From Omnitrophica WOR_2 bacterium RIFCSPHIGHO2_02_FULL_67_20 (lineage in GTDB: Bacteria; Omnitrophota; Gorgyraeia; Aquiviventales; Aquiviventaceae), in the NCBI GenBank assembly GCA_001805695.1, contig MHGT01000036.1:4146-42985 (forward strand): a stretch of DNA of 38,840 nt, given 5' to 3'. Each line of letters begins with the position of its first letter. Positions within the stretch are counted from its first letter, which is position 1. The translations under genes and the position numbers were made by a program. Below are positions 4,153 through 28,806 of this stretch, one piece after another. The notes beneath the pieces were generated by a model. The model had not been told where the DNA came from, made no database searches, and worked only from the letters and a program-made list of their open reading frames with translations.

Positions 4153-4263
4153 GCACAGAAACACAGAAGGCGGAGAAGACGATGCACACCACAGAGACAC
4201 AGAACAGCAACATCACAACTGCTTCTCTCTGTGTTTCTGTGGATTTCTGTGTTTCTGTGGTGC
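4153..4263. repeat. Nested imperfect hairpin built from ~8-bp CACAGAAA-type units and their complement
   Basis: CACAGAAACACAGAA (4154-4168) is the exact reverse complement of TTCTGTGTTTCTGTG (4245-4259). The inner arm CCACAGAGACACAGAA pairs with TTCTCTCTGTGTTTCTGTGG. The element fills the hrcA-grpE spacer. Confidence 0.85.
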
Positions 4264-4270
4264 GAGTTGG

Positions 4271-4957
4271 ATGATGGGGCACAAGCACGAGGGCGACCGC
4301 GCCAAGCCGGTGCCCGAGCCGAAGCACCCCACCCACGGCGGCCTCGGCGACCCCGGCCCACAGGATGGGGGAGGGCCGGCCGGGGAGGCCGAAGGCCGAA
4401 GCACGCCGCGCGCAGGCAACACCGCTGAGTTGGAGCGGCTGACGCAGGAGGCGGCACAGGCCAAGGACCAGTACCTGCGGATGCTGGCCGACGTCGAGAA
4501 CACGAGGAAGCGGCTGCAGCGGGAGAAGGAGGAGTTTGCCCGGTTCGCGGCCGAGACGGTGGTGCGCGCCCTGCTGCCCATCCTGGACAGCCTGGACCAG
4601 GCGCTCGTCGCGGTGGACCGGAAGAGCGACGCGGATGCGGTCGTGAAGGGCGTCCACCTCATCCACCGCCAGCTGCATGGCGTCCTGGAGAAGGAGGGGG
4701 TCAGGCGGATCCCCACCGTCGGCGAGCCGTTCGACCCGCACCGGCATGAGGCGGTGGCCCAGGTCGAAGCGGACGGTATGGCGGATGACACGATTGTGGA
4801 AGAGGTGCAGGCGGGCTATACGATGAGCGGGAAAATGATTCGGCCCGCGATAGTGAAGGTGGCGAAAGCAAAGGAAGAGCGTTCTGGGTTGGGGGTTGAG
4901 GGTTCGGGGCAAATGCCCAGAACCCCGAACCCCGAACCCCGAACCGAGTCGGATTAA
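4271..4957 (+). CDS. grpE: Nucleotide exchange factor GrpE (C-terminal ~25 aa are translated from a repeat element)
   Basis: LRMLADVENTRKRLQREKEE and the C-terminal GYTMSGKMIRPAIVKV are typical GrpE. The ORF then reads through the 4881-4945 heptad hairpin. Confidence 0.93.
   Translation: MMGHKHEGDRAKPVPEPKHPTHGGLGDPGPQDGGGPAGEAEGRSTPRAGNTAELERLTQEAAQAKDQYLRMLADVENTRKRLQREKEEFARFAAETVVRALLPILDSLDQALVAVDRKSDADAVVKGVHLIHRQLHGVLEKEGVRRIPTVGEPFDPHRHEAVAQVEADGMADDTIVEEVQAGYTMSGKMIRPAIVKVAKAKEERSGLGVEGSGQMPRTPNPEPRTESD
4881..4945. repeat. Heptad-array hairpin: four GTTNNGG units, an AAAT loop, four CCCNGAA units
   Basis: GTTCTGG GTTGGGG GTTGAGG GTTCGGG GC-AAAT-G CCCAGAA CCCCGAA CCCCGAA CCCCGAA. 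The arms are ~25/30 complementary. Confidence 0.85.
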
Positions 4958-4969
4958 GGAGGTCTCTCA

Positions 4970-6850
4970 ATGGCAAAGGTGATCGGCATCGACTTGGGAA
5001 CATCGAACTCCGCCTGCGCCGTGATGGAGCAGGGCCGGCCGGCGATCATTCCGTCGGCGGAAGGCACGAGCGTAGGCGGCAAAGCGTTTCCGTCCTACGT
5101 GGCATTCACGAAGGACGGGCAGCTGCTGGTCGGGGAGCCGGCCCGCCGCCAGGCCGCGACCAACCCGGAGGGGACGGTGCAGGCGGCCAAGCGGAAGATG
5201 GGGACCGACCACGTGTACCGCATCTACGGCAAGGAGTACACGCCGCAGCAGATTTCCGCCTTCATCCTGCAGAAGGTGAAGCGGGACGCGGAGGCCCACC
5301 TCGGCGAGCCGGTGAAGGAAGTCGTCATCACCGTGCCCGCCTACTTCAACGACAACCAGCGCCAGGCGACCAAGGACGCGGGCGCGATCGCGGGCCTGGA
5401 GGTGCTGCGGATCGTGAACGAGCCGACCGCCGCGTGCCTCGCCTACGGCCTCGACAAGGCGGCGAAGGAGCAGAAGATCCTCGTCTTCGACCTGGGCGGC
5501 GGCACGCTCGATGTGACCATCATGGACATGGCCCAGGGGGTCTTCGAGGTCAAGGCGACGAGCGGCGATACCCAACTGGGCGGCACCGATATGGACCTCT
5601 CACTCGTGGACTACATCGCCTCCGAGTTCAAGAAGGAGACGGGGATCGACGCGCGCAACGACCGGGTGGCGGCCCAGCGCATCCGCGAGGCGGCGGAGAA
5701 GGCGAAGATCGAGCTCTCGAACGTCATCGAGACCGACCTGAACTTGCCCTTCATCACCGCGGATGCCTCCGGGCCGAAGCACCTCACCATGACGCTGACG
5801 CGCGCGACGCTCGAGCGGTTGATCGAACCCATCATCAGCCGCTGCCGCGGCCCGATCGAACGGGCGCTGGGCGACGCGAAGCTCAAGCCCTCGGACATCG
5901 ACCGCATCATCCTCGTCGGCGGCCCCACCCGCATGCCCATCGTTCAGCGGTTCGTCGAGGAGGCGGTCGGCAAGAAGGTGGAGCGGGGGGTGGACCCGAT
6001 GGAGTGCGTCGCGATGGGCGCCGCCGTCCAGGCGGGGATCATGAAGGGCGAAGTGAAGGACGTCCTCCTGCTCGACGTGACGCCGCTCTCGATGGGCATC
6101 GAGACGCTGGGCGGCGTGTTCACCAAGCTCATCGAGCGCAACACGACGGTGCCCACCCGCAAGAGCCAGGTCTTCTCGACGGCGGACGACAACCAGTCGG
6201 CGGTGACGATCCGGGTGCTCCAGGGCGAGCGGCCGATGGCCTCCGACAACGTGGAGCTGGGCCGGTTCGACCTGATCGGCATCCCGCCGGCACCCCGCGG
6301 CGTGCCGCAGGTCGAGGTGGCGTTCGACATCGACGCGAACGGCATCGTGCACGTCTCGGCCAAGGACCTCGGGACCGGCAAGGAGCAGTCGATCAAGATC
6401 ACCGCGCCCGAGAAGCTCTCGAAGGACGAGATCGAGAAGATGGTCAAGCAAGCGGAGCAGTTCGCCGAGGCGGATAAAAGCCGCAAGGAGCTGGCCGAGG
6501 CGAAGAACCAGGCGGACCAGCTCGTCTACGCGACCGAGAAGAGCCTGAAGGAGCTGGGCGACAAGGCGGGCCAGTCGGAGCGCCTGGCGATCGAGCAGGC
6601 AAGCCGCGACCTCAAGGACGCCCTCAAGTCGGACGACCTGGCGAAGATCAAGCGGGCGACCGAATCGCTCATGCAGGTTTCGCACAAGCTGGCGGAGGAA
6701 GTGTATAAGAAGGGGCAGGGGGCAAAGGGCGGGGGGCAGGGGGCGGGGGAACGCGGACCGCAGGCCCCGGAAGAGCCCGCCCAGCAGGCCGGCGGGAAGG
6801 ACGATAAGGTCGTGGACGCGGAGTTCAAGGTTAAGGATGAGGGGAAGTGA
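4970..6850 (+). CDS. dnaK: Molecular chaperone DnaK (Hsp70)
   Basis: [19 protein letters not shown] and VGGPTRMP motifs over the full length. An AAGGAGG RBS lies at 4956-4962. Confidence 0.98.
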
Positions 6851-6885
6851 TTCCCGTGGCGTCTGACACCGGTGGGAGGGGGTAC

Positions 6886-7314
6886 ATGAACCTGAAGGCA
6901 TGGGCGAAGGCGACGCTCGGGGCGTTCGTCGCGATCTTTGCGGCGGAGTTTCTCATCCACCACGTCTGGCTGGGCGGGTTCTACAAGGCGCACGCGGTCT
7001 GGTGGCGCCCCGCGGCGCAGATGGGGCCGATGATGCCGCTGATGTTCGCGGCTCAGCTCGTGCTAGCGGCACTCCTCACCGTTGTGTACGCCAAGGGCTA
7101 TGAGCCGGGCAAGGGCGGGGCGGGGCAGGGGTTCCGTTTCGGCGTCCTCATCGGGCTCCTGTTGATGCTCCCCTGCAGCCTGATGAACGCCGTCATCTAC
7201 CCGTACCCGATGTCGCTCATCGTCAACTGGCTCGTCGGCGGCCTGGCCGAGATTGCGCTTGCCGGCGCGGTGATTGGGGCGCTGTATAAGCCTGGGAAGC
7301 AACAGGGAGGTTAG
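6886..7314 (+). CDS. Small multi-pass membrane protein of unknown function (possibly DUF1761-like)
   Basis: Four hydrophobic segments. The ATG at 6886 is preceded by GGGAGGGGG. The gene lies between dnaK and dnaJ. The family assignment is from memory only. Confidence 0.55.
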   Translation: MNLKAWAKATLGAFVAIFAAEFLIHHVWLGGFYKAHAVWWRPAAQMGPMMPLMFAAQLVLAALLTVVYAKGYEPGKGGAGQGFRFGVLIGLLLMLPCSLMNAVIYPYPMSLIVNWLVGGLAEIALAGAVIGALYKPGKQQGG

Positions 7315-7425
7315 CGCGTTGGCGGGTTTGCGGGTTTGCGCGTTCGAGATCGACACCATGAGGACATCTCGGGAGAAAGCAGCCGGCGTATCCGCTTAGT
7401 TCCGGCAAGACTGATTTGAAACGTG

Positions 7426-8556
7426 ATGCCGACGACGAAACGCGACTACTACGAAATCCTCGGGGTGCAGAAGAGCGCCACGCTTGACGAGATCAAGCGG
7501 GCGTACCGCCAGCTGGCGCTGAAGCACCACCCGGACCGGGTGGGGGCTGAGCACAAGAAAGAGGCCGAGGAGAAGTTCAAGGAAATCTCCGAGGCCTACG
7601 CCGTCCTCTCCGATGCGCAGAAGCGCTCGGTCTATGACCAATACGGCCACACGCCAGGTTTTGACCAGCGCTACTCGACCGAGGACATCTTCCGCAACGC
7701 CGACTTCTCGAGCATCTTCGAGGACCTCGGCCTGGGCGGCTCGTTCTTCGAGGGCCTCTTTGGGGGCGGCGCTCTGGGGGCGGGGCGCGGCGCTCGCGGC
7801 TCGGACCTCGAGATGGAGCTGCCGCTCACGTTCGAGGAGGCCGCCCGCGGGACGACGAAGATGGTCACCGTGCCGCGGCGCGAGCTCTGCCACGAGTGCC
7901 GCGGCGAAGGCGGCGAGCGCGCGGCCTGCTCGACCTGCCGCGGGACCGGGCAGATCCGCCAGTCGGCCGGGTTCATGGTCATCGCGCGCACGTGCAACCG
8001 GTGCGGTGGGCAGGGCGGCACGGTCAAGAAAGCCTGCCCGGCCTGCCGGGGGAGCGGCCGCGTGGCGGTCGAGCGCCGGATTGAGGTCCGGGTGCCGGCC
8101 GGTATCGAGTCGGGCATGCGCCTCCGGCTGGCCGGCGAAGGCGAGGCGGGCCCGCGGGCCCGCGGCGATCTCTACGTCCACCTGACCGTCAAACCGCACC
8201 CGCTGTTCCGGCGGGAGGGGCCGCACCTGATCCTCGAGTACCCGGCGAGTATCGCGCAGGCCGCGCTGGGCGCCGAGGTGGAGCTGCCCACGATGAACGG
8301 CCGGGTGTCGATGAAGATCCCGCCGGGGACGCAGAGCGGCACGGTGTTCCGGGTGCGGGGCAAGGGGCTGCCCGACGTGCAGGAGCGGGGGGGGACGGGC
8401 GATCTCCTCGTGCGGGTGAGCGTCGAGACGCCAACGAACCTGACCGGCGCCCAGCGCAAGGCGTTCGAGGAGCTCTTCCGCGCGCTGGGCGACGACGCGC
8501 ACCCCGCGCGGAGGTCGTTCTTGGCGAAACTCAAGGAGTTGATCAAGCAGCGTTGA
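7426..8556 (+). CDS. dnaJ: Co-chaperone DnaJ
   Basis: J-domain DYYEILGV...HPD, a G/F-rich linker, and four CxxCxGxG zinc motifs ([32 protein letters not shown]). Confidence 0.97.
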
Positions 8557-8656
8557 GCCGGTTTTGCCCGTTATGCCGGTTGGCCCGTTAGAGCCGGTTC
8601 GGTACCAACGGGCTCAACGGGCTCAACGGGCCCAACGGGCTCAACGGGCCAACGGA
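8551..8656. repeat. 9-bp-unit palindromic array, GCCCGTT/GCCGGTT family, copy 1 of 4
   Basis: gagccggtt ttgcccgtt atgccggtt ggcccgtta gagccggtt cggtacc aacgggc tcaacgggc tcaacgggc ccaacgggc tcaacgggc caacgg. The dnaJ stop codon (8554-8556) lies inside the first unit. Confidence 0.9.
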
Positions 8657-8659
8657 AAC

Positions 8660-8950
8660 ATGCCGACGTACGAATACCAGTGCGCGAAGTGCAAGAAGCG
8701 CCGCGAGGCGTCCCAGTCCATCACCGCCAAGCCGCTCGTCAAGTGCCCGAAGTGCGGCGGCCGGCTCAAGCGCCTCATGGGCCGCGGCTCGGGCTTCCTG
8801 TTCAAGGGGAGCGGGTTCTACATCACCGACTACCGGAGCAAGAGCTACCAGGACGCCAAGAAGAAGGACCAAGACGCGAAGAAGAAGGACCAACCTGCCT
8901 CCTCTTCCTCTGACGGCAAAAGCTCCTCGTCCACCGGTAGCAAAGCGTAG
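8660..8950 (+). CDS. FmdB-family putative regulatory zinc-ribbon protein
   Basis: MPTYEYQCAKC...KCPKCGG is the CxxC-N-CxxC signature of this family. The QRAQRAQRA N-terminal extension in the ORF track is a translation of the repeat. Confidence 0.85.
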   Translation: MPTYEYQCAKCKKRREASQSITAKPLVKCPKCGGRLKRLMGRGSGFLFKGSGFYITDYRSKSYQDAKKKDQDAKKKDQPASSSSDGKSSSSTGSKA

Positions 8951-9002
8951 TGTATGGGGCTACGCGGCCGCCGCGTATGCGGCGGTCATCCTTGTCGGCT
9001 CG

Positions 9003-9305
9003 GTGGTCCCCGTTCCCGAGGGGCCGTCGGTCCCGTACCTTGACAAGGCAGTCCATCTCTGCGAGTATCTCCTCTTTGCCTGGCTGCTCGCGGGAGCGCT
9101 GCGCGCGGCCCGGTTGACCGAGCGGGAGTACGGGCGGCTTGCCTGGATGTACGCCACGAGCTACGGCCTTCTCATTGAGCTGATCCAGGGGCTCATCCCG
9201 TGGCGCTCGGCGGATTTGTGGGACGCGGCGGCGAATGCCCTCGGCGCGGCATTCGGGGTCTGGTTGGGACGACGCATTCCTCGCCGCTCCTCGGGCAGTC
9301 CATAG
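9003..9305 (+). CDS. VanZ-like membrane protein (N-terminus probably incomplete as called)
   Basis: LDKAVHLCEYLLFAWLL...GLLIELIQGLIPWRSADLWDAAANALGAAFG matches the VanZ pattern. An in-frame TM-like stretch (WGYAAAAYAAVILVGS) lies upstream of the first canonical start codon. Confidence 0.65.
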   Translation: MVPVPEGPSVPYLDKAVHLCEYLLFAWLLAGALRAARLTEREYGRLAWMYATSYGLLIELIQGLIPWRSADLWDAAANALGAAFGVWLGRRIPRRSSGSP

Positions 9306-9356
9306 TCTCCGCCAAAGGCGGACCCGCCTCCGGCGGGGACAGTCAACGGTCCACAG

Positions 9357-10022: not shown

Positions 10023-11252
10023 ATGGCGAAGATCCGCCCGTTCCGCGCGTTGCGCTATGACTCGTCGCGCTTTGGCGACCTCAGCCCCGTCCTGGCACCC
10101 CCGTATGACGTGATCGACGCCGCAGAGCAGGACCAGCTCTACGAGCGCTCGCCCCATAACATCGTCCGCCTGATCCTCGGCAAGCAGTCGGCCGCCGACA
10201 CCCCGGCAGACAACCGCTACACCCGCTCGGCCCTCGACTTCGCCGCATGGCAGGAGCAGGGCATCCTGCGCCGCGACCACGCCCCGGCGCTCTATCTCGT
10301 CGACCACCGCTTCCAGGCGGGCGGCGAGTCCCGGTCGCGCCTGGGCTTCCTCGCCCTCCTCGAATTCACCGAGCCCATCGAGCAAGCGGTCCTGCGCCAC
10401 GAGAAGACGCTCTCAGCACCCCGGGAGGACCGGACGAAGCTCCTGGACGCCGTGCCGGCGAGCCTCGAGCCGATCTTCCTGGTCTATCCCGATGAAGGGG
10501 GGGCCGTCCAGGCGCTGCTGCGGGACCGCTCGGTTCAAGCGCCGGACGCCGCCGGCTCGCTGGGCGGCGAGGACATCCGGCTCTGGGCGGTGACCGACCC
10601 GGAGCTCATCCGGCGCGTCAGCGAGGCACTCGAGCCGTCGGCGGTGCTGATCGCGGACGGCCACCACCGCTTCGAGGTCGCCTACAGCCGGCGCAGCCGC
10701 CATCGCGCGCTGATGGCCTACTTCGCGTCGATGGAGGAGCCCTCGCTCATCGTGCGGCCCATCCACCGCGTTGTTTCCTCGGGGCGCCGGCTCGATGTGG
10801 AAGCCTCGGGCGGCCTGTGCGCGGCTGCCCCGGTTCCCGACCTGGCGGCCCTGCTGCGCTGGCTCGACGATGAGCGCGCTCCCGGCTGTTTCGGCTGGTC
10901 GGACGGGCGGGCGTTCTACCGGTTGACGGTTCCGCCGGACCGGCTGGAGCGGTGGCTCAAGACGTCGCCGGTGCCAAAGCCGGTCGCCCGCCTCGACGTC
11001 TCGCTCCTGCACGGCCTCCTCCTGCCGGGCCTCGGCTTCCACGGGGCCACGATCCGGTACGCGGCCGATGCCCGCAAGGCGATCGGGGAGCTGGGCGGCA
11101 GCGGGTCGGTGTGGCTGCTGCGCGGTATTCCGCTCGCCGACGTCTACGACGTCGCCGCCCAGGGGCTGCTACTCCCGCCGAAATCCACATATTTCTACCC
11201 GAAGGTCCCCTCCGGGCTGGCCATCAATCTCCTCGGGGGCCAGACCCCCTGA
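10023..11252 (+). CDS. DUF1015 family protein
   Basis: The N-terminus MAKIRPFRALRY...VLAPPYDVI...ERSPHNIVRLILG and the internal IADGHHRFE are characteristic of DUF1015. Confidence 0.85.
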   Translation: MAKIRPFRALRYDSSRFGDLSPVLAPPYDVIDAAEQDQLYERSPHNIVRLILGKQSAADTPADNRYTRSALDFAAWQEQGILRRDHAPALYLVDHRFQAGGESRSRLGFLALLEFTEPIEQAVLRHEKTLSAPREDRTKLLDAVPASLEPIFLVYPDEGGAVQALLRDRSVQAPDAAGSLGGEDIRLWAVTDPELIRRVSEALEPSAVLIADGHHRFEVAYSRRSRHRALMAYFASMEEPSLIVRPIHRVVSSGRRLDVEASGGLCAAAPVPDLAALLRWLDDERAPGCFGWSDGRAFYRLTVPPDRLERWLKTSPVPKPVARLDVSLLHGLLLPGLGFHGATIRYAADARKAIGELGGSGSVWLLRGIPLADVYDVAAQGLLLPPKSTYFYPKVPSGLAINLLGGQTP

Positions 11253-11295: not shown

Positions 11296-11376
11296 AACTC
11301 TTTCCGTGTTTCCCCCAACGAGTTACCGCGCAGTCGGTTGGTCGACGGCAAGCCTCACGAGGTGTGATCAGGTGAT

Positions 11377-11491
11377 CCCACCACCTGGCTGTCCCGCCAT
11401 TGGCGGGGCAGATTCCAATGGAAGAGCTGAGGGTGAACATGCAGTGTGACAATCTGCGGGCTGCCGTTGGCAGCCCCAGCCAGGTGGTGGG
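11377..11491 (+). promoter_or_regulatory. Structured accD 5' leader (predicted four-way junction closing at the start codon)
   Basis: P1 is CCCACCACCTGGCTG (11377-11391) paired with CAGCCAGGTGGTGGG (11477-11491), a perfect 15 bp. P2 is CCCGCC-ATT-GGCGGG (11393-11407). P3 is GCAGATT (11408-14) paired with AATCTGC (11451-57). P4 is GGGCTGCC-GTT-GGCAGCCC (11458-11476). The ATG is at 11492. Confidence 0.5.
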
Positions 11492-12333
11492 ATGAAGCTC
11501 TTCAGCAAGCGCCATCCCAGCCTCGCGCGCCGGTCCAAGCGCGAGATCCCCACCGGCCTCTGGACGAAGTGCGAGTCCTGCGGCCAGCTCATCTACAACA
11601 AGGCGCTGGAGGAGAACCTCCGCGTCTGCCCCAAGTGCGACTTCCACTTCCCCCTCGCCGCGGCCCAGCGCCTTAAGCTCACGCTGGATGAGGGGACGTT
11701 CGAGGAGTGGGATGCGGAGCTTGCCCCCGTCGACCCCCTGAACTTCGCCATCCCCAGGCCGTACGCCGAGAAGGTCGTGGAGGAACAGCGCGCCTGCGGC
11801 ATGCCCGACGCCTGCGTCACCGGCAAAGGGCTCCTGGATGGGCACGAGGTGGTGATCGGTATCACCGACTCCCGCTTCATGATGGGGTCGATGGGCTCGG
11901 TGGTGGGGGAGCGCCTCACGCGCGCCATCGAGCGCGCCACCGAGCAGCGGCTGCCGCTCATCATCGTGTCCGGCTCCGGCGGCGGCGCGCGGATGCAGGA
12001 GGGGGCGCTGAGCCTCATGCAGATGGCGAAGACCTCGGCCGCGCTCATGCGCTACGACGAGCAGGGGGGCTGCTTCCTCTCCGTCCTCACGCACCCCACG
12101 ATGGCCGGGGTGCTCGCCAGCTTCGCGACGCTGGGCGACCTCATCATCGCCGAGCCCAAGGCGCTCATCGGCTTCACCGGCCCCCGCGTCATCGAGCAGA
12201 CCATCCGGCAGAAGCTGCCGGAGGGGTTCCAGCGCTCGGAGTTCCTCCTGGAGCACGGCCTCATCGACCTCATCGCGCACCGCCGGGAGATGAAGGCCGT
12301 GCTGGCCAGGCTCCTGAGCTACTACGGGCGCTG

Positions 12334-13437: not shown

Positions 13438-13544
13438 TTCGTTAAGCCCGTTAAGCCCGTTGGGCCCGTTGGGCCCGTTGAGTCCGTTCGGACGGGCCGC
13501 CAACCGGCTCAACGGGCGCAACCGGCCTAACGGGCTCAACCGGG
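13438..13544. repeat. 9-bp-unit palindromic array, GCCCGTT family, copy 2 of 4
   Basis: gcccgttaa gcccgttaa?gcccgttgg gcccgttgg gcccgttga gtccgttcg gacgggccg ccaaccggc tcaacgggc gcaaccggc ctaacgggc tcaaccggg. It ends 1 nt before the next ATG (13546). Confidence 0.9.
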
Positions 13545-15028: not shown

Positions 15029-15099
15029 ATTTCGGATTTCGGATTTGGGATTTCGGATCCAAAGGTTTCGTCCGCAATCCGTAATCCGCAATCCGAAAT
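15029..15099. repeat. Heptad-array hairpin: 4 x ATTTCGG-type units, a loop, 4 x CCGNAAT units
   Basis: ATTTCGG ATTTCGG ATTTGGG ATTTCGG (15029-15056), then CCGCAAT CCGTAAT CCGCAAT CCGAAAT (15072-15099). Confidence 0.88.
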
Positions 15100-15112: not shown

Positions 15113-16390
15113 ATGGTAATTGTCACCTCTCTCTGGCTCCTCGCCATGGTCTCCGGCCTCTGCTGGGCGCGCCGCTACACGGCGGCGCTGAGCGCCGTGA
15201 CCGCCCTGGCGTTCATCGCCACCGAGGCCGAGACGCTGCTCGCATGGACCGGTTGGCTCCAGCTGGCGGCGTTGGGTGCGACACCCTGGCTGCTGGCGGC
15301 CCAGCGCCTGCAGGATGCGCTGACCGTCAGGCGGCTGCATGATGAGGAGGCCGCGCGCCTCGCCAAGCTCTCCGAGGCGGCCCGGTCGCTCCTCTCGCTG
15401 CAGCGCTCGACCGACCAGATGGAGGCGCAGATCAGCCAGATCACCGATCTCTACCACGTGACGAAGGAGACCTCGCGGGCGATGCACGTGAAGGAGCTCT
15501 TCGCCGCGTCGCTGGATATCGCGCCCCGCCTGCTCAGCGCCAGCGGCCTGCGCCTCATCGACCTCTCCGGCGAAGAGCCCCGCGTCCTGCGGGCCGCGCG
15601 CGGGGCGGACGGGCGCATGCGGGAGGAACAGGCCGACGGGCCGCTCGATGCGGAGCGCGCCATCATCCAGGAGGCGCTGGCGTCGGCCCCCCAGGCGGCG
15701 GGCGGGCGGACGGGGCCATCGGGCCTGGCCTGGGCGCCGCTGTGGCGTGAACAACACGCGGTGGGAGTGCTGGTCGCCGACGGGCTGCCGGATGACCAAA
15801 TCCGGACGCTGACGATCGTCGCGAACCAGCTTTCGCTCCAGCTGGCCCGCGTCACGCTCTACCAGCGGGTGGAGTCGCTCGCCGTCACGGATGCGCTCAC
15901 CGGCCTCTTCGTGCGCCGGCACTTCATGGAGCGCTCCAGGGAGGAGCTGACGCGCTCCAAGCGCCACGGCCTGGCCTGCTCGCTGCTCATGGTCGACCTC
16001 GACCACTTCAAGCAGAAGAACGACACGTACGGCCACCTGGTCGGCGACGTCGTCCTCCGCGACGTGGCGCGGCTGCTGGCGCACAACCTCCGCGAGGTGG
16101 ACCTCATCGCCCGCTACGGCGGCGAAGAACTCGTGCTCATGCTCATCGAAACCGGGCCGGCGCAGGCGCTGCCGATCGCCCAGCGGCTCGCTCAGCTCGT
16201 CGCGGTGCACCCGATCCGCGCCTACGATGAGCTCCTGACGCAGACGGTCAGCATGGGGTTGGCCGCCTTCCCGGACCACGGCGACACGCTGGAAACGCTG
16301 ATTGAGCGGGCGGACCAGGCGCTGTACGCGGCGAAGCAGGCGGGGAGGAATCGTGTCGTTGTGTACTCGGAAAAAACGCAGGGGGTGTAG
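15113..16390 (+). CDS. Membrane-anchored GGDEF diguanylate cyclase (GGEEL variant with an RxxD I-site)
   Basis: DLDHFKQKNDTYGHLVGD, REVDLIARYGGEEL (RxxD five residues before the GGEEL motif), and an N-terminal hydrophobic region. Confidence 0.9.
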   Translation: MVIVTSLWLLAMVSGLCWARRYTAALSAVTALAFIATEAETLLAWTGWLQLAALGATPWLLAAQRLQDALTVRRLHDEEAARLAKLSEAARSLLSLQRSTDQMEAQISQITDLYHVTKETSRAMHVKELFAASLDIAPRLLSASGLRLIDLSGEEPRVLRAARGADGRMREEQADGPLDAERAIIQEALASAPQAAGGRTGPSGLAWAPLWREQHAVGVLVADGLPDDQIRTLTIVANQLSLQLARVTLYQRVESLAVTDALTGLFVRRHFMERSREELTRSKRHGLACSLLMVDLDHFKQKNDTYGHLVGDVVLRDVARLLAHNLREVDLIARYGGEELVLMLIETGPAQALPIAQRLAQLVAVHPIRAYDELLTQTVSMGLAAFPDHGDTLETLIERADQALYAAKQAGRNRVVVYSEKTQGV

Positions 16391-16455
16391 CGTGTACCGT
16401 TTACCGTGTACCGTCAAGAGCGATGAATCAGGTTTTCACGGTACACCGTACACGG
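16391..16455. repeat. Heptad-array hairpin: GTGTACC-type units and their complement GGTACAC
   Basis: GTGTACC GTTTACC GTGTACC GT (16392-16414), a loop, then AC GGTACAC CGTACAC GG (16438-16455). It runs directly into the 112-nt element. Confidence 0.8.
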
Positions 16456-16568
16456 TTCACCCCGTACCACGGTGGACGCCCCGCCCGTCAGGGCGGGGAG
16501 GAATGGCGTGGTCGTCCCGAAGGGTCGTTCCAGAGGCCACGGCCGTTAGGCCGTGGTACGGGGTTCAC
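16455..16568 (+). repeat. Conserved ~112-nt structured palindromic element, copy A (possible ncRNA, cis-regulatory RNA or MITE)
   Basis: About 80% identical by eye to 22887-22997. Terminal complement ACCCCGTACCACGG / CCGTGGTACGGGGT. Hairpins CCCCGCCC-GTCA-GGGCGGGG and CCACGGCC-GTTA-GGCCGTGG. Confidence 0.7.
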
Positions 16569-16585
16569 GGTACACGCACGATGTG

Positions 16586-17548
16586 ATGAGCGCGACGCCG
16601 TGGGCAGTTGGGGTGGATTTTGGCGGCACGACGGTGAAGGTGGGGCTGGTGACGCCCGCCGGCCGCGTGGCCGCGGTCCGCGTGCTCCCGACCGCGGAGC
16701 TCCGCCGTCCGGCGCAGTTCGCCGACGCGGTGAGCCAGGCGGTCCGGTCACTAGTCCAAGAACGCGGCCTGCGCATGAGCCGGATCGCGGGAGTCGGCAT
16801 CGGCGCGCCCGGGCCGGTGGACGCGGCGCGCGGCGTCATCCACTCGATGGTGAACGTGCCGGGGTGGCGCGAGGTTCCGCTGGCGCGGCGGCTCGCGCGG
16901 CGGCTTCAGTGCCGGTGCGTCGTGGATAACGACGCCAACTGCTTTGCGCTGGCCGAGTGGCGCTTCGGCGCGGGACGTGGCGCCGATGACCTTATCTGCC
17001 TCACGCTCGGGACGGGCCTCGGCGGCGGACTGATCCTGGACGGCGCGCTCTACCGCGGAGCCTCGGGTGCTGCGGGGGAGCCCGGCCACATGGTCATCGA
17101 CCCCCGCGGGCCGCGCTGCGGCTGCGGGCGGCGCGGGTGCCTGGAGGCGCTCGTGGGTACAGCGGCCATTGTGGCGCTCGGGCGGCCGGCCCTTCGGCGA
17201 TCGGCCCACCTGCGGCGGCTGGTTCGCGCGCACGGTGGACGGTTGATGCCCCGTCTGATTGGCCGGGCGGCTCGCGCGGGGGACCCGCACGCGCGGGCGG
17301 TCTGGGCCGAGATCGGGGCGCGCCTTGGCGTCGGCGTGGCGAACCTCGTGAACCTGTGCAACCCCGAGCGCGTGGTGATCGGCGGCGGGATCGCGAATAA
17401 CTGGTCGCTGTTCGCGCCGGCGATGCGCGTGACCGTGCGCCGCGAGGCGATGGCGGGGAGCGCGCGCGCGGTCCGGATCGTGCGCGCCCGGCTCGGAGAC
17501 TACGCTGGCATTGTCGGAGCGGCTGTGCTAGTTTGGGAAGACCGTTAG
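16586..17548 (+). CDS. ROK-family glucokinase/sugar kinase
   Basis: The N-terminal AVGVDFGGTTVKVGL and the zinc motif GHMVIDPRGPRCGCGRRGCLE are typical ROK features. A GTG at 16583 is an alternative start. Confidence 0.88.
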   Translation: MSATPWAVGVDFGGTTVKVGLVTPAGRVAAVRVLPTAELRRPAQFADAVSQAVRSLVQERGLRMSRIAGVGIGAPGPVDAARGVIHSMVNVPGWREVPLARRLARRLQCRCVVDNDANCFALAEWRFGAGRGADDLICLTLGTGLGGGLILDGALYRGASGAAGEPGHMVIDPRGPRCGCGRRGCLEALVGTAAIVALGRPALRRSAHLRRLVRAHGGRLMPRLIGRAARAGDPHARAVWAEIGARLGVGVANLVNLCNPERVVIGGGIANNWSLFAPAMRVTVRREAMAGSARAVRIVRARLGDYAGIVGAAVLVWEDR

Positions 17549-17634
17549 GTCCGTTATGCCGGTTGCGCCCGTTGAGCCGGTTGGCAGTCCGTGCGAACGG
17601 GCTCAACGGGCCTAACGGGCTCAACGGGCCAACG
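17541..17634. repeat. 9-bp-unit palindromic array, GCCCGTT family, copy 3 of 4
   Basis: accgttagg tccgttatg ccggttgcg cccgttgag ccggttgg cagtccgtgcg aacgggc tcaacgggc ctaacgggc tcaacgggc caacgag. The ROK stop codon (17546-17548) lies in the first unit. Confidence 0.9.
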
Positions 17635-21435: not shown

Positions 21436-21439
21436 TCGC

Positions 21440-21483
21440 AAAGTACCAGGTACTTTTCCCCGCACAAAAAGTACCTGGTGCTT
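21440..21483. terminator. AT-rich 17-bp hairpin after lptD whose two arms are each self-palindromic (terminator and/or twin operator)
   Basis: AAAGTACCAGGTACTTTT (21440-21457), the loop CCCCGCAC, then AAAAGTACCTGGTGCTT (21467-21483). Each arm is an AAGTACC-N-GGTACTT palindrome. Confidence 0.45.
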
Positions 21484-21498
21484 GTGAGCGCTTTTGAC

Positions 21499-21504
21499 TA
21501 TAAT
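21499..21504 (+). promoter_or_regulatory. Candidate -10 box (TATAAT) upstream of ugd
   Basis: A perfect TATAAT 36 nt upstream of the ATG. The GAGGAG RBS is at 21527-21532. The -35 region is weak and overlaps the second palindrome. Confidence 0.4.
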
Positions 21505-21539
21505 TGGAGTTCCCATTCCGTCGTCTGAGGAGCCAGCAT

Positions 21540-22856
21540 ATGGAGATTAGCGTAGTTGGGGCCGGCCACGTCGGGTTGGTGACGGGTGCCTGCTTCGCGG
21601 ACCTCGGCCACTCCGTGGTCGTGGTGGATAATGACGCCAAGCGGATCACCAACCTCAGGAAGGGCGTCATGCCCTACTACGAGCCCGGCCTGGAGGAACT
21701 GGTGGCCCGGGGGGTGCGGGAGAAACGGTTGACGTTCACCACGTCGCTCAAGGAAGGGGTCGCACAGTCCACCATCATCTTCATCGCCGTCGGCACTCCG
21801 CAGAAGGCGACGGGCGAGGCGGACCTCGCCTACGTCGAGATCGTCGCCCGGTCCATCGCGGAATGCCTCCCCGGCTACCGGCTCGTGGTGGAGAAGTCCA
21901 CCGTGCCGGTGCAGACCGGGAAGTGGGTCGCCCACACGATCAAGACCTACCTGAAGAAGAAACAGTCCTTCGACGTGGCCTCCAACCCCGAGTTTCTGCG
22001 CGAAGGCACCGCCATCCAGGACTTCATGAAGCCCGACCGCGTCGTGCTCGGCGTGGAATCCGCCCGCGCGAAGGCCCTGCTCGTCGAGCTCTACAAGCCG
22101 CTCGGGGTTCCCATCGTCGTGACCGACATCAACAGCGCCGAGCTCATCAAGCACGCCTCCAATTCCTTCTTGTCCATGAAGATCTCCTTTATCAACGCGG
22201 TGTCCCAGATTTGCGAGCGCGTGGGTGCTGACGTGGCGCAGGTGGCCGACGGGATGGGCCTGGACCCGCGCATCGGCCGCTCGTTCCTCAATGCGGGGGC
22301 GGGTTTCGGCGGCTTCTGCTTCCCGAAAGATTTGGAAGCGTTCATCAAAATCGCCGAGCAGCTCGGCTACGACTTCGAGCTCCTGAAGGCGGTGCGCAAC
22401 GTCAATGAGCAGCAGAAGCGCGTCTTCGCGGCGAAAATCCAGCGCGCCCTCTGGGTGGTGAAGGGCAAGACGATTGCGGTGCTGGGCCTGGCGTTCAAGC
22501 CGAACACCGACGACATGCGCTACGCGCCGGCCATCGACGTCATCGAGTACCTGCAGGGCGAGGGCGCCGCCATCCGGGCCTTCGACCCGCAGGCCATGAA
22601 GGAGGCGGCGCGCCTGCTGCCGAAGGTCACGCTGTGCAAGGATCCTTACGACGCCGCGCGGGGGGCGGACTGCCTCGCGGTCCTGACCGAGTGGAACGAG
22701 TTCAAGGAGCTCGACTTCAAGCGGCTCAAGAAGCTCCTGCGCCAGCCGCTGGTCGTCGATGGGCGGAACATCTACGATCCGGCGCGCATGCGCGCGCTGG
22801 GCTTCCGGTACCACGGCATCGGGCGGGGCAAGGACGACTCGGGAGCCGGGGAGTAA
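21540..22856 (+). CDS. ugd: UDP-glucose 6-dehydrogenase
   Basis: MEISVVGAGHVGLVTGACFADLGH, the catalytic GFGGFCFPKD, and GLAFKPNTDDMR. Confidence 0.95.
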   Translation: MEISVVGAGHVGLVTGACFADLGHSVVVVDNDAKRITNLRKGVMPYYEPGLEELVARGVREKRLTFTTSLKEGVAQSTIIFIAVGTPQKATGEADLAYVEIVARSIAECLPGYRLVVEKSTVPVQTGKWVAHTIKTYLKKKQSFDVASNPEFLREGTAIQDFMKPDRVVLGVESARAKALLVELYKPLGVPIVVTDINSAELIKHASNSFLSMKISFINAVSQICERVGADVAQVADGMGLDPRIGRSFLNAGAGFGGFCFPKDLEAFIKIAEQLGYDFELLKAVRNVNEQQKRVFAAKIQRALWVVKGKTIAVLGLAFKPNTDDMRYAPAIDVIEYLQGEGAAIRAFDPQAMKEAARLLPKVTLCKDPYDAARGADCLAVLTEWNEFKELDFKRLKKLLRQPLVVDGRNIYDPARMRALGFRYHGIGRGKDDSGAGE

Positions 22857-22886
22857 GGATGGCGCCGACCCGGACCGCCGCCGGCC

Positions 22887-22997
22887 GTTCACCCCGTACC
22901 ACGGAAGCCCCGCCTGTCAAGGCGGGGAGGAAGTGGCAATCGACCCCGAAGGGTATTTTCGGAAGCCACGGGCGTAAGCCCGTGGTACGGGGTTCGC
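22887..22997 (+). repeat. Conserved ~112-nt structured palindromic element, copy B
   Basis: It has the same termini and the same three helices as 16455-16568. Two stem positions changed in a compensatory way (CCCCGCCT-GTCA-AGGCGGGG and CCACGGGC-GTAA-GCCCGTGG). Confidence 0.7.
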
Positions 22998-23542
22998 CCA
23001 TCGCCGGAGTCCCCCGCGGGGATCGGGAGAGCCGCTCCGCGCGTCCGGAGGTCCCGGCCCCGGCCTCGCGGACGGCGGGGAAGCCGCTCATTCAGGGGCT
23101 GCGGACCAAAGCGCTGCGCGTGGTGCCGGACGAGCGCGGCCGTCTCTTCGAGATGCTGCGGCAGGATGACGAGCTGTTCCTGAAGTTCGGGCAGGCGTAC
23201 TGCACGACCGTGAACGCCGGCGTGGTGAAGGGCTGGCACTATCACAAGAAACAGCAGGACAACTTCGTCTGCGTCAGCGGCATGATCAAGCTGGTGGCGT
23301 ACGACAGCCGGCCGGACTCGCCGACCAAGGGCCTCCTCAACGAATTCTTTATCGGCGTCCACCATCCGCTGCTCGTGCAGATCCCGCCGGGCGTCTACCA
23401 CGGCTTCAAAGGGCTCACCGACCCGGAGGCGATCGTCATCAACCTCTCGACCGAGCCCTACGACCATCAGCAGCCCGACGAGTACCGCCTGCCGCCGCAC
23501 ACGAGCGAGATCCCCTATGACTGGAACCACAAGGATGGGTGA
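22982..23542 (+). CDS. rmlC: dTDP-4-dehydrorhamnose 3,5-epimerase-like cupin (short RmlC-type); start uncertain
   Basis: The conserved core starts near 23090 (LIQGLRTKALRVVPDERGRLFEML...GWHYHKKQQDNFVCVSG...PPGVYHGF). The only canonical in-frame start upstream of the core is the GTG at 22982, inside repeat copy B. Confidence 0.75.
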   Translation: MVRGSPIAGVPRGDRESRSARPEVPAPASRTAGKPLIQGLRTKALRVVPDERGRLFEMLRQDDELFLKFGQAYCTTVNAGVVKGWHYHKKQQDNFVCVSGMIKLVAYDSRPDSPTKGLLNEFFIGVHHPLLVQIPPGVYHGFKGLTDPEAIVINLSTEPYDHQQPDEYRLPPHTSEIPYDWNHKDG

Positions 23543-26197: not shown

Positions 26198-27498
26198 CTC
26201 GGCTAGCCAAGCGCATTACCGCCCGGACGGCGCGCGTCGGCGTCATCGGGCTCGGTTACGTCGGTCTGCCGCTCGCCGTCGAGTTCGCGAAAGAAGGGTT
26301 CACCGTCACAGGGATTGACCTCGACGCCGCGCGGGTCCGGAGGGTCAACCGCGGGCGCTCCTATATTCTCGACGTGCCGAGCGACGATCTCCGGAAGCTG
26401 CGCCGCGCGCGGCGGCTCTCGGCGACCTCCTCGTTCGATGTGCTCGCCAAGCAGGACGCGATCATCATCTGCGTCCCCACGCCGCTGCGCAAGACCCGTG
26501 AGCCGGACATGTCATTCATTATCTCCGCGACGAATGAGATCGCCCGCCGGGCGCGCCGGGGCCAGCTCATCGTGCTGGAAAGCACGACGTATCCGGGGAC
26601 GACGGACGAGGTGGTCCGACCAGCGATCGAGGCGCGCGGTCTCACGGTCGGGAAGGACGTCTGCCTCGCCTTCTCGCCCGAGCGGATCGACCCGGGCAAT
26701 GCGGTGTACACGACGCGCACGATTCCGAAGGTGATCGGCGGCACGACGCCGCTGTGCACGAAGCTGGCCGCGGCCCTCTACGGCTCGGCGATCCACCGGA
26801 CGGTGCCGGTCTCCTCCTCGCGGGTGGCCGAGATGGTCAAGCTGCTGGAGAACACCTTCCGCGCCGTCAACATCGGCCTCGTCAACGAGATGGCGCTCAT
26901 CTGCGACCGCCTCGGCATCGACGTCTGGGAGGTGATCGAGGCGGCGCGGACCAAGCCGTTCGGGTTCATGCCGTTCTACCCGGGCCCCGGCATCGGCGGC
27001 CACTGCATCCCCTCCGACCCCATCTACCTTGCCTGGAAGGTGCGCGTCCACGGTTTCGAGGCGCGCTTCATCGACCTCGCCTCGCAAATCAACGGGGCGA
27101 TGCCGGAGTACGTCGTCGAGAAAGTCGGGAAGGTGCTGAACGACCGGCGCACGGCGCTCAAGGGCGCTCGGGTGCTGCTCCTGGGCCTGGCGTACAAGAA
27201 AGACGTGGGCGATTTGCGCGATTCGCCGGCCTTCGATGTCGCGCGGCTCCTCGCGGAGCGTGGGGCCGTCATCGCCTACCACGATCCGTTCGTCCCATCG
27301 GCGGAGCTGAATGGCGCGCGGTACCGCTCGACGCCGCTCACCGCCGCCGCCCTGCGGCGGAGCGACTGCGTCGTCCTGCTCACGAACCACTCGTCGGTGG
27401 ACTATGCCTTCGTGCTGCGCAAGGCGCCGGTCATCGTGGACACGCGCAACCAGTACGGCAGCCTCGGGCGGTCCTCCGCGAAGGTCGTGAAATTGTAA
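26155..27498 (+). CDS. UDP-N-acetyl-hexosamine 6-dehydrogenase (WbpA/WbpO/TviB/WecC-type nucleotide-sugar dehydrogenase)
   Basis: RVGVIGLGYVGLPLAVEFAKEGF, GPGIGGHCIPSDP and GLAYKKDVGDLRDSP. The start is taken as the ATG at 26155. The ORF-track N-terminus before it overlaps rmlD in another frame. Confidence 0.88.
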   Translation: MGRSARGLSASAPLARLAKRITARTARVGVIGLGYVGLPLAVEFAKEGFTVTGIDLDAARVRRVNRGRSYILDVPSDDLRKLRRARRLSATSSFDVLAKQDAIIICVPTPLRKTREPDMSFIISATNEIARRARRGQLIVLESTTYPGTTDEVVRPAIEARGLTVGKDVCLAFSPERIDPGNAVYTTRTIPKVIGGTTPLCTKLAAALYGSAIHRTVPVSSSRVAEMVKLLENTFRAVNIGLVNEMALICDRLGIDVWEVIEAARTKPFGFMPFYPGPGIGGHCIPSDPIYLAWKVRVHGFEARFIDLASQINGAMPEYVVEKVGKVLNDRRTALKGARVLLLGLAYKKDVGDLRDSPAFDVARLLAERGAVIAYHDPFVPSAELNGARYRSTPLTAAALRRSDCVVLLTNHSSVDYAFVLRKAPVIVDTRNQYGSLGRSSAKVVKL

Positions 27499-27514
27499 GA
27501 GCGCTGCTCGGAGC

Positions 27515-27766
27515 ATGAACAGAGCAGGTGGACGAATGGCCGGACGGACGGCGGGCGCACATTGCCTGTTCTGTGGACGGTTGATGGCGGCACGGTCCGG
27601 CCGACCGGCGCTGCGGTGCCGCGGCTGCGGGGCGCACTTTGCGGCTACGTGGGATCAGGCAGGCTGCTTGACCGGCCTACGGATCGAATCCTGCGGGGCA
27701 AGGCCGTGCTGCCGGGATGCTGCTCCAGCAGGCGGACGCAGGCAACGGAAGCGCGTGGAGGGTTGA
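27515..27766 (+). CDS. Possible small zinc-ribbon protein (83 aa)
   Basis: CLFCG-N14-CRGCG motif. The stop overlaps the next ATG (TGATG), as at other junctions in this cluster. Arg-rich, with weak GC3 bias, so it could be spurious. Confidence 0.3.
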   Translation: MNRAGGRMAGRTAGAHCLFCGRLMAARSGRPALRCRGCGAHFAATWDQAGCLTGLRIESCGARPCCRDAAPAGGRRQRKRVEG

Positions 27767-28710
27767 TGGCGCGATATCTTGTGACAGGCGGGGCGGGGTT
27801 CATCGGCTCGCATGTTGTGGACCGGCTGCTCGCCGACGGCCACCAGGTGCGCGTGCTGGACGACCTCTCCTCCGGCCGGCGGGAGAACCTCGCGCAGGCG
27901 GGCAAGCGCGTCGAGTTCATCCAGGCGGACATCCGCGACCGCGCCGCGATGGGCAAGGCGTGCAAGGGTATTACGCGCATCATCCACGCCGCCGCCTGGC
28001 GCAGCGTCCCGAAGTCCATGGCCGATCCCTACGGCTACACCGACGTCAACGTCCTCGCCACGGTGAACCTCCTCGAAACGGCGGTGAAGGAGAAGGTGAA
28101 GCGGGTCGTGTGCGTCTCGTCCAGCTCGGTCTACGGCGATGCGACGAAGATGCCGCTGCGCGAGGACGCCCCGACTCTTCCGATCTCCCCCTATGCGGCC
28201 TCGAAGCTGGCCGACGAGCTCTTCTGCGGCCTCTTCCACCGCGCCTTCGGGCTCGAGACGGTCGCCGTGCGGTACTTCAACGTCTTCGGCCCCCGGCAGA
28301 GCCTGGAGAACGAGTACGCGGTGGTGATCCCGAAGTTCATCGTCTGTCTCCTCCGCAAGGAATCGCCGCCGATCTACGGCGATGGCACGCAGTCGCGCGA
28401 CTTCACCTACGTGGATAACGTGGTCGAGGGCACCATCGCGGCCTCCCAGGTTCCCGGCGTCAGCGGCGAGGTGTTCAACGTGGCGCTCGGCGAGGAGCAC
28501 ACGGTGCTCCATCTCCTGGAGGAGCTGAACTCGATCATGAGCCTCTCCATCAAGCCGGCCTTCAAGCCCCCGCGAGCCGGCGACGTCAAGCGCACCTTCG
28601 CCGATTCCTCCAAGGCCGAGCGGCTGCTCAAGTGGAAGGGGCGCATCAGCTTCTCCGAGGGGCTGCGCCGCACCGTCGACTGGTTCCGGGCGCACCCGCC
28701 GAAAGCGTAG
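27766..28710 (+). CDS. NAD-dependent nucleotide-sugar 4-epimerase (WbpP/TviC-like SDR)
   Basis: [22 protein letters not shown] and YAASKLADE. It lies directly after the UDP-N-acetylhexosamine dehydrogenase, as in the WbpO/WbpP and TviB/TviC pairs. Confidence 0.88.
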   Translation: MARYLVTGGAGFIGSHVVDRLLADGHQVRVLDDLSSGRRENLAQAGKRVEFIQADIRDRAAMGKACKGITRIIHAAAWRSVPKSMADPYGYTDVNVLATVNLLETAVKEKVKRVVCVSSSSVYGDATKMPLREDAPTLPISPYAASKLADELFCGLFHRAFGLETVAVRYFNVFGPRQSLENEYAVVIPKFIVCLLRKESPPIYGDGTQSRDFTYVDNVVEGTIAASQVPGVSGEVFNVALGEEHTVLHLLEELNSIMSLSIKPAFKPPRAGDVKRTFADSSKAERLLKWKGRISFSEGLRRTVDWFRAHPPKA

Positions 28711-28711
28711 T

Positions 28712-28806
28712 GCGTTGGGCCCGTTGTGCCGGTTGAGCCTGTTGGAAGGTTGAATACCCTCTCACCAAACGGGCCTAACGGACAAAACCGGCCTAACGGG
28801 TCAAAC
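28712..28806. repeat. 9-bp-unit palindromic array, GCCCGTT family, copy 4 of 4 (more degenerate)
   Basis: gcgttgg gcccgttgt gccggttga gcctgttgg ... caaacgggc ctaacggac aaaaccggc ctaacgggt. Confidence 0.8.

Follow-up and report, generated by a model that had tools for sequence, protein, structure and literature searches.

A 38,840-nt stretch of Omnitrophica WOR_2 bacterium RIFCSPHIGHO2_02_FULL_67_20 (contig MHGT01000036.1, positions 4,146 to 42,985; hereafter the window), an uncultured groundwater bacterium, carries hairpin elements of roughly 65–110 nt at eight junctions between genes. By sequence and predicted fold, each of these elements is a palindrome whose microsatellite-like arms are short tandem arrays in inverted orientation. 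In the 39 kb of the window, the units are 7, 8 or 9 nt long and at least five of them are unrelated; about 130 kb of related sequence contains at least 12 unrelated unit types. The reading that we favour, with confidence and doubt about evenly balanced, is a composite one: the elements would be DNA-level palindromes, grown by slippage and occasionally dispersed, that are looped out of the polycistronic mRNA and affect translational coupling or mRNA stability.

The eight elements and one half element are listed below, with their predicted folds.

4153–4263, forward strand: hairpin at the hrcA-grpE junction, 8-nt unit of CACAGAAA type; −50.7 kcal/mol, z = −5.4
4881–4948, forward strand: grpE-dnaK hairpin, 7-nt units GGGTTNN / CCCCGAA, arms 4884–4909 and 4923–4948; −47.0 kcal/mol, z = −6.1
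7309–7344, forward strand: half element in the orf155-dnaJ spacer, 4.5 tandem copies of GGTTTGCG without a complementary arm; spacer fold not significant, z = −0.4
8551–8656, forward strand: dnaJ-fmdB hairpin, nonamer family GCC(C/G)GTTNN, arms 8551–8599 and 8606–8655; −68.3 kcal/mol, z = −7.1
13438–13544, forward strand: hairpin between the ABC ATPase gene and the first GGDEF gene (GGDEF1), nonamer family, arms 13440–13488 and 13501–13543; −71.1 kcal/mol, z = −7.1
15029–15099, forward strand: hairpin between GGDEF1 and the second GGDEF gene (GGDEF2), 7-nt unit ATTTCGG, arms 15029–15057 and 15071–15099; −32.7 kcal/mol, z = −5.9
16382–16463, forward strand: hairpin after GGDEF2, 7-nt unit GTGTACC, arms about 16385–16417 and 16435–16460; −37.8 kcal/mol, z = −5.1
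17541–17634, forward strand: ROK-fsa hairpin, nonamer family, arms 17541–17586 and 17592–17634; −65.6 kcal/mol, z = −8.6
28712–28806, forward strand: epimerase-aminotransferase hairpin, degenerate nonamer family, arms 28713–28744 and 28764–28807; −40.4 kcal/mol, z = −3.0

Periodic hairpins in the window

The original prediction had named eight loci composed of tandem units, a loop and complementary units. They were confirmed by Tandem Repeats Finder, by an inverted-repeat search and by folding, and their unit sequences were as claimed. Tandem Repeats Finder reported arrays of period 7, 8 or 9 with 2.9–5.7 copies, on both arms at most loci (4228–4259; 4886–4909 and 4916–4945; 8551–8599 and 8606–8655; 13440–13488 and 13501–13543; 15029–15058 and 15071–15099; 16385–16414; 17558–17583 and 17596–17634; 28713–28744 and 28764–28807). 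The inverted-repeat search of the window recovered the loci beginning at 4153, 4881, 8551, 13438, 15029, 16382 and 17541, and opposite arms were complementary at 79–94%. Each of the eight loci was predicted to fold into a single long hairpin (minimum free energy −33 to −71 kcal/mol, z = −3.0 to −8.6). The predicted stems consist of helical runs of 5–7 bp, and regular 1 × 1 or 2 × 2 mismatches fall at the variable positions of the units. The hrcA-grpE element departs from the described form in being nested: its 5′ arm consists of two separated unit pairs (4154–4169 and 4187–4204) rather than one clean array, and its 3′ arm covers 4228–4262. The weakest locus is 28712–28806, which was overlooked by the strict custom detector.

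The custom detector accepted stems from 18 nt upwards and loops up to 45 nt, and it asked for complementarity of at least 75% and an identical period on both arms. Of the 10 hairpins that it found in the window, 7 were periodic. In 100 dinucleotide-preserving shuffles of the window, the mean was 2.1 hairpins and 0.09 periodic hairpins, with a maximum of one periodic hairpin; the architecture is non-random. A 50-kb control from E. coli K-12 that included the bacterial interspersed mosaic elements (BIMEs) of the mal region gave 4 hairpins, none periodic, in line with the proposed distinction from ordinary repetitive extragenic palindromic (REP) sequences and BIMEs. A 31-kb Mycoplasma control gave 12 hairpins, also none periodic. 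In 94.6 kb from relatives, the strict detector found 11 periodic hairpins. The density of the elements is about one per 5 kb, and about half of the window spacers of at least 50 nt hold one. Since independent assemblies of 99.85–99.98% identity carry the elements unaltered, they are not assembly artefacts. The Rfam scan gave no match at the gathering score and only three chance-level matches at E ≤ 1, so the elements belong to no catalogued Rfam family. The tRNA and tmRNA search found none.

Position at stop and start codons

The GC content of the window is about 67%, and almost all genes are on the forward strand. The gene order is miaA, hflX, hrcA, grpE, dnaK, orf155, dnaJ, fmdB, VanZ, orf218, DUF1015 and accD, followed by the ABC ATPase gene, the two GGDEF genes, a ROK kinase gene, fsa and an LptD-like gene, and then by a long sugar-nucleotide and polysaccharide block. 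The ROK protein matches a protein of Omnitrophica WOR_2 bacterium RIFCSPHIGHO2_02_FULL_67_20 at 100% identity, and the homologues of HrcA were all in metagenome-assembled genomes (MAGs) of Omnitrophica/Omnitrophota. A perfect CIRCE operator (controlling inverted repeat of chaperone expression; TTAGCACTC-N9-GAGTGCTAA, 3063–3089) is located upstream of hrcA and is preceded by a promoter-like TTGACA-17-TAAACT (the two together at 3029–3089). The operator and the promoter-like site occur only upstream of hrcA, and hrcA-grpE-dnaK-orf155-dnaJ is predicted to be one HrcA-controlled heat-shock operon. Because these signals stand only before hrcA, the four elements from hrcA to fmdB lie inside, or at the end of, one operon. 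The hflX-hrcA spacer, where the promoter and CIRCE are located, measures about 70 nt and contains no element in any lineage examined.

All eight loci sit at junctions between co-directional genes, which agrees with the earlier placement at gene 3′ ends and spacers of a co-directional block. Contrary to the earlier claim, the location is not strictly intergenic: the locus first delimited as 4881–4945 is translated as a grpE tail, and the first unit of the dnaJ-fmdB and ROK-fsa elements contains the stop codon of the upstream gene (TGA of dnaJ, TAG of the ROK gene). Six of the eight elements start 0–1 nt past the upstream stop codon or include it, either in the first unit or, for the GTGTACC hairpin, within the stem base (TAG, 16388–16390). 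One starts 22 nt past the stop, and one (4881–4948) lies within the grpE open reading frame (ORF). At seven of the eight elements, the next start codon follows 1–21 nt beyond the 3′ arm; downstream of the GTGTACC hairpin, a separate 112-nt repeat occupies the space. The hrcA-grpE element begins 0 nt from the hrcA TAA and ends 7 nt from the grpE ATG. The corresponding distances are 0 nt from TAG and 1 nt from ATG at 13438–13544, and 1 and 6 nt at 28712–28806. The fmdB ATG is 3 nt beyond the last unit of its element, and the fsa ATG is 14 nt downstream of the ROK-fsa element, after GACGGAG.

At the grpE-dnaK junction, the element is translated as the C-terminal end of the grpE reading frame. The GrpE domain itself stops near residue 205, but the ORF extends to 4957; the tail, read through the GGGTTNN hairpin, ends ..GLGVEGSGQMPRTPNPEPRTESD. 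Gene callers thereby lengthen GrpE by about 25 residues (4271–4957), giving 228 aa versus 198 aa in the relatives L127 and L130.

The elements all lack a U-tract. None of the U-tract terminator calls in the window coincides with any element, and no promoter-like site was found between an element and the next gene. Read-through is needed for downstream expression because the next start codon is only 1–21 nt away, which leaves no room for a promoter. Judged by this anatomy, the elements are intercistronic hairpins, not terminators. The start codon is 1–7 nt from the 3′ arm at four of the seven junctions, and therefore the ribosome-binding region lies inside the 3′ arm there. The predicted pairing probability at positions −18 to +3 was 0.42–0.88 over the seven junctions. 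Among these, only dnaK (AAGGAGG) and fsa (GACGGAG) have a clear Shine-Dalgarno sequence outside the stem.

Turnover and dispersal among relatives

The syntenic loci compared were L003, L004 and L127–L137. The HrcA proteins of L127 and L130 are each 93% identical to that of the window. The grpE-dnaK junction holds a GGGTTNN element in the window, a GTCGACC-type element in L127, CAGACNN in L003 and L132, and AATGTGN in L134; it is empty in L130 and L004. At the hrcA-grpE junction, the CACAGA element of the window has an orthologue in L127 that is shorter; the 3′ arm in the window exceeds it by 16 nt, which equals two units. In L134 this junction holds a half element, the 5′ tandem array alone, and in L130 it is empty, with an ancestral-looking overlap TGATG. 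The orf155-dnaJ spacer, which has a half element in the window, has a full CAGACNN hairpin in L003.

Similar differences were observed further downstream. The dnaJ-fmdB junction of L135 has an orthologous nonamer element with 3–4 units per arm versus 5–6 in the window, and its unit variants are mirrored between the arms (GCCTGTT with AACAGGC, GCCCGTG with CACGGGC). At the ABC-GGDEF1 junction, L135 has an unrelated AGTGGCNN octamer hairpin instead of the nonamer. The GGDEF1-GGDEF2 junction of L135 and L136 carries a GAAGTCC-type hairpin in place of ATTTCGG, and the site after GGDEF2 is a 0-nt junction in L137 and holds a GATA-type hairpin in L135. The ROK-fsa junction has the nonamer in the window, an octamer version (GCCCGTTN) in L137, a CGCAGAT-type element in L135 and an 18-nt spacer in the P0247 lineage. 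This comparison of orthologous spacers yielded both presence/absence and unit-number variation, and the sequences indicate that element turnover among close relatives is fast. The swaps of units at the same junction strongly reinforce the earlier argument that one architecture built from unrelated units points to a generating process or to selection on shape.

Some families are present in several copies, with four nonamer hairpins in the window, two CAGACNN hairpins in L003 and two AGTGGC hairpins in L135. Of the two in L135, one is the octamer hairpin at the ABC-GGDEF1 junction, and the other fills the orf216-DUF1015 junction, which is only 9 nt long in the window. The loops of the nonamer hairpins have a GTTCGG(T/A)CCG-like centre, common to the window copies and to copies on the unrelated metagenome contigs L044 and L047. 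A metagenome scan with the nonamer pattern found contigs of 50–67% GC with nonamer hairpins, several of which also hold periodic hairpins of other units; many matches of the scan are probably coding or chance, and only contigs showing the hairpin architecture were used. The nonamer strings resemble GTTRRRY and prompted a comparison with integron attC sites. In an attC site, an imperfect palindrome carries 5′ RYYYAAC ... GTTRRRY 3′ cores where its stem begins, and it follows mobile promoterless cassettes. This candidate was rejected, as the core order is reversed here (5′ GTTRRRY ... RYYYAAC 3′), the other families contain no GTTRRRY strings, and the neighbouring genes are syntenic and have housekeeping functions.

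One family has also entered a gene. In L132, a copy of the GGGTTNN/CCCCGAA family is located in frame in MiaB, between the N-terminal and radical-SAM domains, and its 31-nt 3′ arm differs by one base from the grpE-dnaK copy of the window. The insert (2233–2303) contributes about 20 residues (..GLGVGGNNGLPRTPNPEPRT..), which other MiaBs lack. A second MiaB insert, of variable length, hairpin-forming and in frame, was observed inside the radical-SAM domain in all lineages examined (L003 6762–7016; L004 6998–7174; L131 from 217; L134 from 260). The L134 insert contains GGGGTCAGACCCC twice.

The C-terminal coding tail of DnaK carries heptamer arrays in matching places, GGGGCAG × 5 in the window (6712–6749) and CAGCAGA × 5 in L003 (13557–13591). 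Because the DnaK tails carry such arrays, the same slippage-prone unit length also shapes protein tails. Two complementary arrays about 950 nt apart, AGCGTNN × 4 (about 9235–9265) and NNACGCT × 4 (about 10170–10215), were noted in L132. The segment that they enclose, inserted between dnaK and dnaJ, carries a DUF2283 gene. From its sequence, this arrangement looks like a hairpin with an insertion in its loop, or like arms that serve as the ends of a larger unit.

The contig L015 belongs to the Desulfobacterales (MurC 80–82% identical to proteins of Desulfobacterales MAGs; GC content 54%). It has two hairpins, 4745–4841 and 10856–10926, with 9-nt (ATTGGTTTN) and 8-nt (ATTGAGGA) units, which are flush with stop codons in the mraY-murC part of the dcw cell-wall cluster. 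The architecture therefore also occurs beyond a single phylum, the Omnitrophota.

Possible origin, function and related repeats

The stems are almost purely Watson-Crick. Of 21 hairpins whose direction of transcription is known, 14 were more stable on the sense strand (p = 0.09, not significant), and G-U pairs made up about 5–7% on either strand. Watson-Crick stems and the absence of a sense-strand bias fit maintenance at the DNA level: the palindromes look as if they are maintained as DNA, and an effect in RNA would still be compatible with this.

Slippage and template switching are established behaviours in quasi-palindrome mutagenesis. We propose that the arms lengthen and shorten by whole units through replication slippage, and that the partner arm is matched by copying the other arm through intramolecular template switching within the quasi-palindrome. 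Together, these two processes would yield one architecture from any initial sequence. Whole hairpins may now and then be copied to new sites. In a compact genome whose ancestral junctions overlap or span a few nucleotides, an insertion would be harmless only at stop/start junctions, in protein tails and in linkers, and the flush boundaries of the elements may be explained by this restriction. A hairpin at a junction would be tolerated since, once looped out of the polycistronic mRNA, it keeps the stop codon next to the start codon that follows.

Transcription is expected to pass through the elements rather than end there. The upstream stop codon would then lie at one side of the stem base, and the downstream ribosome-binding region, in about half of the cases, at the opposite side. 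A ribosome terminating upstream may open the stem base and free the downstream initiation region, which would couple the translation of the two genes. The REP sequences of malEFG block 3′ exonucleases, and the stem may hinder 3′-to-5′ exonucleases in a similar manner. Effects on translational coupling and mRNA stability are likely. The earlier suggestions that the elements stabilise mRNA, or act as processing sites that set stoichiometry in operons, are plausible.

Several observations weigh against the composite reading. Strain pairs at ≥99.85% identity show no indels and no change of unit number in the elements, so slippage is not fast at the strain scale. The idea that the elements are hypermutable contingency loci was ruled out by the same pairs. 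L130, L004 and L137 manage with tight or overlapping junctions, which means that the elements are dispensable. The copies in the grpE tail and in MiaB are translated, unlike what a purely intercistronic role predicts. The sense strand of the 21 hairpins shows no G-U enrichment and thus no positive sign of RNA-level selection. The window and the related loci examined revealed neither a copying enzyme nor a clear target-site duplication, and the T(A/G)A repeats at element ends, seen when filled and empty sites are compared, are suggestive at most.

The strongest alternative, which is possible but clearly less probable than the composite reading, is that the elements are pure by-products of the same DNA-level process, survive only where they are harmless, and have no role in RNA. 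Close relatives differ in which elements they carry, tight junctions characterise whole lineages, the units at a given junction are not conserved, the sense strand has no G-U bias, and in-frame copies are tolerated in MiaB and in the GrpE tail, all of which would be expected of a by-product. In addition, no gene-regulation role could be identified for the Xanthomonas repeats (Rehm et al., PMC4692102). The high density, with about half of the longer spacers occupied, and the return of hairpins at one junction in four sequence guises are less easily explained in this way. Stable transcribed stems around the stop and start codons could also hardly be without effect on translation or decay.

A more tentative extension, which we consider doubtful, is that one structure-recognising process builds tandem-arm hairpins in several phyla (Omnitrophota, Desulfobacterales, Xanthomonas and cyanobacteria) and that the cell uses them as operon punctuation. 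The agent could be an unknown hairpin-acting enzyme or a special state of replication or repair. If this were true, the elements would form a new class of DNA, self-organising or mobile, that has its own mechanism, and the punctuation would strictly tie downstream translation to termination upstream.

It is improbable that the elements are classical non-autonomous mobile elements, such as MITEs (miniature inverted-repeat transposable elements) or REPINs (REP doublets forming hairpins), mobilised in trans by a dedicated transposase that recognises the hairpin, either a REP-associated tyrosine transposase (RAYT) or one of the IS200/IS605 type. The multi-copy families of the window, L003 and L135, the occurrence of one family at non-orthologous sites in different genomes, the conserved loop centre of the nonamers, the directly comparable filled and empty sites and the short T(A/G)A repeats flanking the elements would suit such mobility. 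However, no transposase was found in the window or in the related loci examined; the unannotated ORFs of the window encode VanZ, DUF1015, a LexA DNA-binding domain, epimerases and an aminotransferase. At least 12 unit types in about 130 kb would call for many cognate enzymes or for a single one guided by structure only. The arms are repetitive inside and change by whole units, unlike the terminal inverted repeats of MITEs, and neither a consistent target-site duplication nor a parent insertion sequence was seen.

Two further roles put forward in the original prediction are very improbable. Strong GC-rich stems that start at gene 3′ ends would suit U-tract-independent terminators or operon-end signals of a high-GC genome, but this reading is largely refuted by the anatomy described above: the close start codons without a promoter-like site (seven of eight), the four elements in a single CIRCE-controlled heat-shock operon, the element in a translated ORF tail, and the lack of any coinciding U-tract terminator call. 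Iteron arrays for a repeat-reading protein, for example of the ribbon-helix-helix omega/ParG type, would account for conserved cores with variable positions in direct and inverted orientation and for the recurrence of the nonamer core in contigs of 50–67% GC, but many unrelated cores occur within one genome and are swapped at the same junction among close relatives; at least 12 different units turn over among these relatives inside housekeeping operons; the sites are internal to operons, where one gene stops and the next starts, rather than at promoters; a gene for such a regulator was not seen next to them; and a spacing of 7–9 bp is out of step with the helical repeat.

The original prediction did not recognise a described element class, but comparable repeats are on record: inverted heptamer pairs in Xanthomonas (PMC4692102) and hairpins of short tandemly repeated repetitive (STRR) sequences in cyanobacteria (PMC2670836). 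What is new here is the presence of this kind of element in an Omnitrophota lineage, with several unit families; the kind itself is known but unexplained. We found no paper on repeats in Omnitrophota.

Xanthomonas genomes each contain 183–186 GGGAATC/(GGGANTN)n arrays, modally with four units (Rehm et al. 2015, PMC4692102). The arrays are 89–93% intergenic, follow the upstream ORF at a mean distance of 28 nt, mostly have co-directional genes on their two sides, and differ between species; 70–75 cases per genome are convergent array pairs with stem-loop potential (PMC4692102). The elements of the window share with them the heterogeneous head-to-tail units of about 7 nt in about 3–6 copies, here extended to 8 and 9 nt, a length and sequence that vary between related genomes, and a high-GC host. 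A nearby complementary array giving a stem-loop and a position near the 3′ end of the upstream ORF between co-directional genes (all eight loci) are shared with both the Xanthomonas and the STRR repeats. Xanthomonas has one dominant G-rich unit that has been studied as a G-quadruplex, whereas only one family here is G-quadruplex-capable. The phylum also differs, and unlike the Xanthomonas arrays, the elements described here fill the stop-to-start junctions almost exactly and swap units at the same junction.

The STRR heptamers of heterocystous cyanobacteria form hairpins between genes, such as hupS-hupL, for which roles in transcript stability or translational coupling have been proposed (PMC2670836). 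The csR1 TTGTCAG / CTGAC arrays are a further cyanobacterial heptamer example (PMC2408588). The STRR hairpins resemble the elements of the window as hairpins of 7-bp tandem units between co-transcribed genes with several unit families per genome. The STRR hosts differ in being low-GC and filamentous, and their solitary arrays outnumber inverted pairs (PMC4692102). The portions of the STRR literature covered here report no unit replacement at one junction.

Heptanucleotide tandem repeats are over-represented in scattered bacterial lineages, and polymerase slippage has been proposed as their cause (Mrazek et al. 2007, as summarised in PMC4679880). Solitary arrays like these long simple sequence repeats (5–11 nt) also occur here, at 7309–7344 and in the DnaK tail at 6712–6749. 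That class consists of direct repeats only, unlike the paired inverted arms and the junction-filling position of the elements.

REP sequences act as a barrier to 3′ exonucleases and allow differential expression inside operons. By analogy, the elements probably work in the same manner. Like the REP, BIME and REPIN sequences of enterobacteria and pseudomonads, they are small multi-copy extragenic imperfect palindromes transcribed within operons (REPIN biology: PMC3116915). However, REP palindromes of 20–40 nt have arms with no internal periodicity and a family-specific conserved sequence, whereas the arms here are periodic and built from several unrelated units. No RAYT (TnpA_REP) gene was found in the window or in the related loci examined. 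Rickettsia palindromic elements (RPE) are 100–150 bp long, form a single family and can sit in frame in protein genes without damage. The GGGTTNN hairpin resembles them by its location within coding sequence (MiaB of L132, GrpE tail of the window). It differs from them by its arms of tandem units, and most elements of this kind are intercistronic.

The comparative data on these elements are much richer than those published for the Xanthomonas and cyanobacterial cases. The lineage is informative because of the high density, several unit families side by side, gain, loss, unit-number change and replacement at the same junction, and the in-frame insertion in MiaB. It makes three questions testable: what grows both arms together, what copies a hairpin to a new junction, and whether a looped-out intercistronic hairpin enforces translational coupling or protects mRNA. 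For annotation, the elements lengthen ORF calls (GrpE tail, MiaB insert) and may supply stop codons, so MAG pipelines will mis-call gene ends.

Other repeats and structures were also noted. The separate 112-nt structured repeat has two copies in the window (16456–16569 and 22886–22999; 82% identical), the first of which directly adjoins the GTGTACC hairpin. Its outer stem (GTTCACCCCGTACCACGG / CCGTGGTACGGGGTTC) encloses two small GC hairpins; in one of these, a C-G pair of one copy is replaced by a compensatory G-C pair in the other copy. This repeat had no Rfam match and was not found in the other loci compared. Another intergenic hairpin repeat has a perfect 17-nt outer stem (ATCCCACCACCTGGCTG / CAGCCAGGTGGTGGGAT) around small GC-rich hairpins; it occurs once in the window (11375–11493, DUF1015-accD spacer) and three times in L135 (about 4537–4645, 4750–4910 and 5753–5845). 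Right after the LptD-like gene, a near-perfect 21-bp non-periodic hairpin (21436–21540, z = −4.8) is followed by a TTGACT...TATAAT-like stretch ahead of ugd. Unlike the periodic hairpins, this is probably a genuine terminator plus promoter. Finally, the gene of the FmdB zinc-ribbon protein contains an in-frame coding 21-nt tandem repeat (8847–8893, 2.2 copies) that gives a lysine- and aspartate-rich tail.

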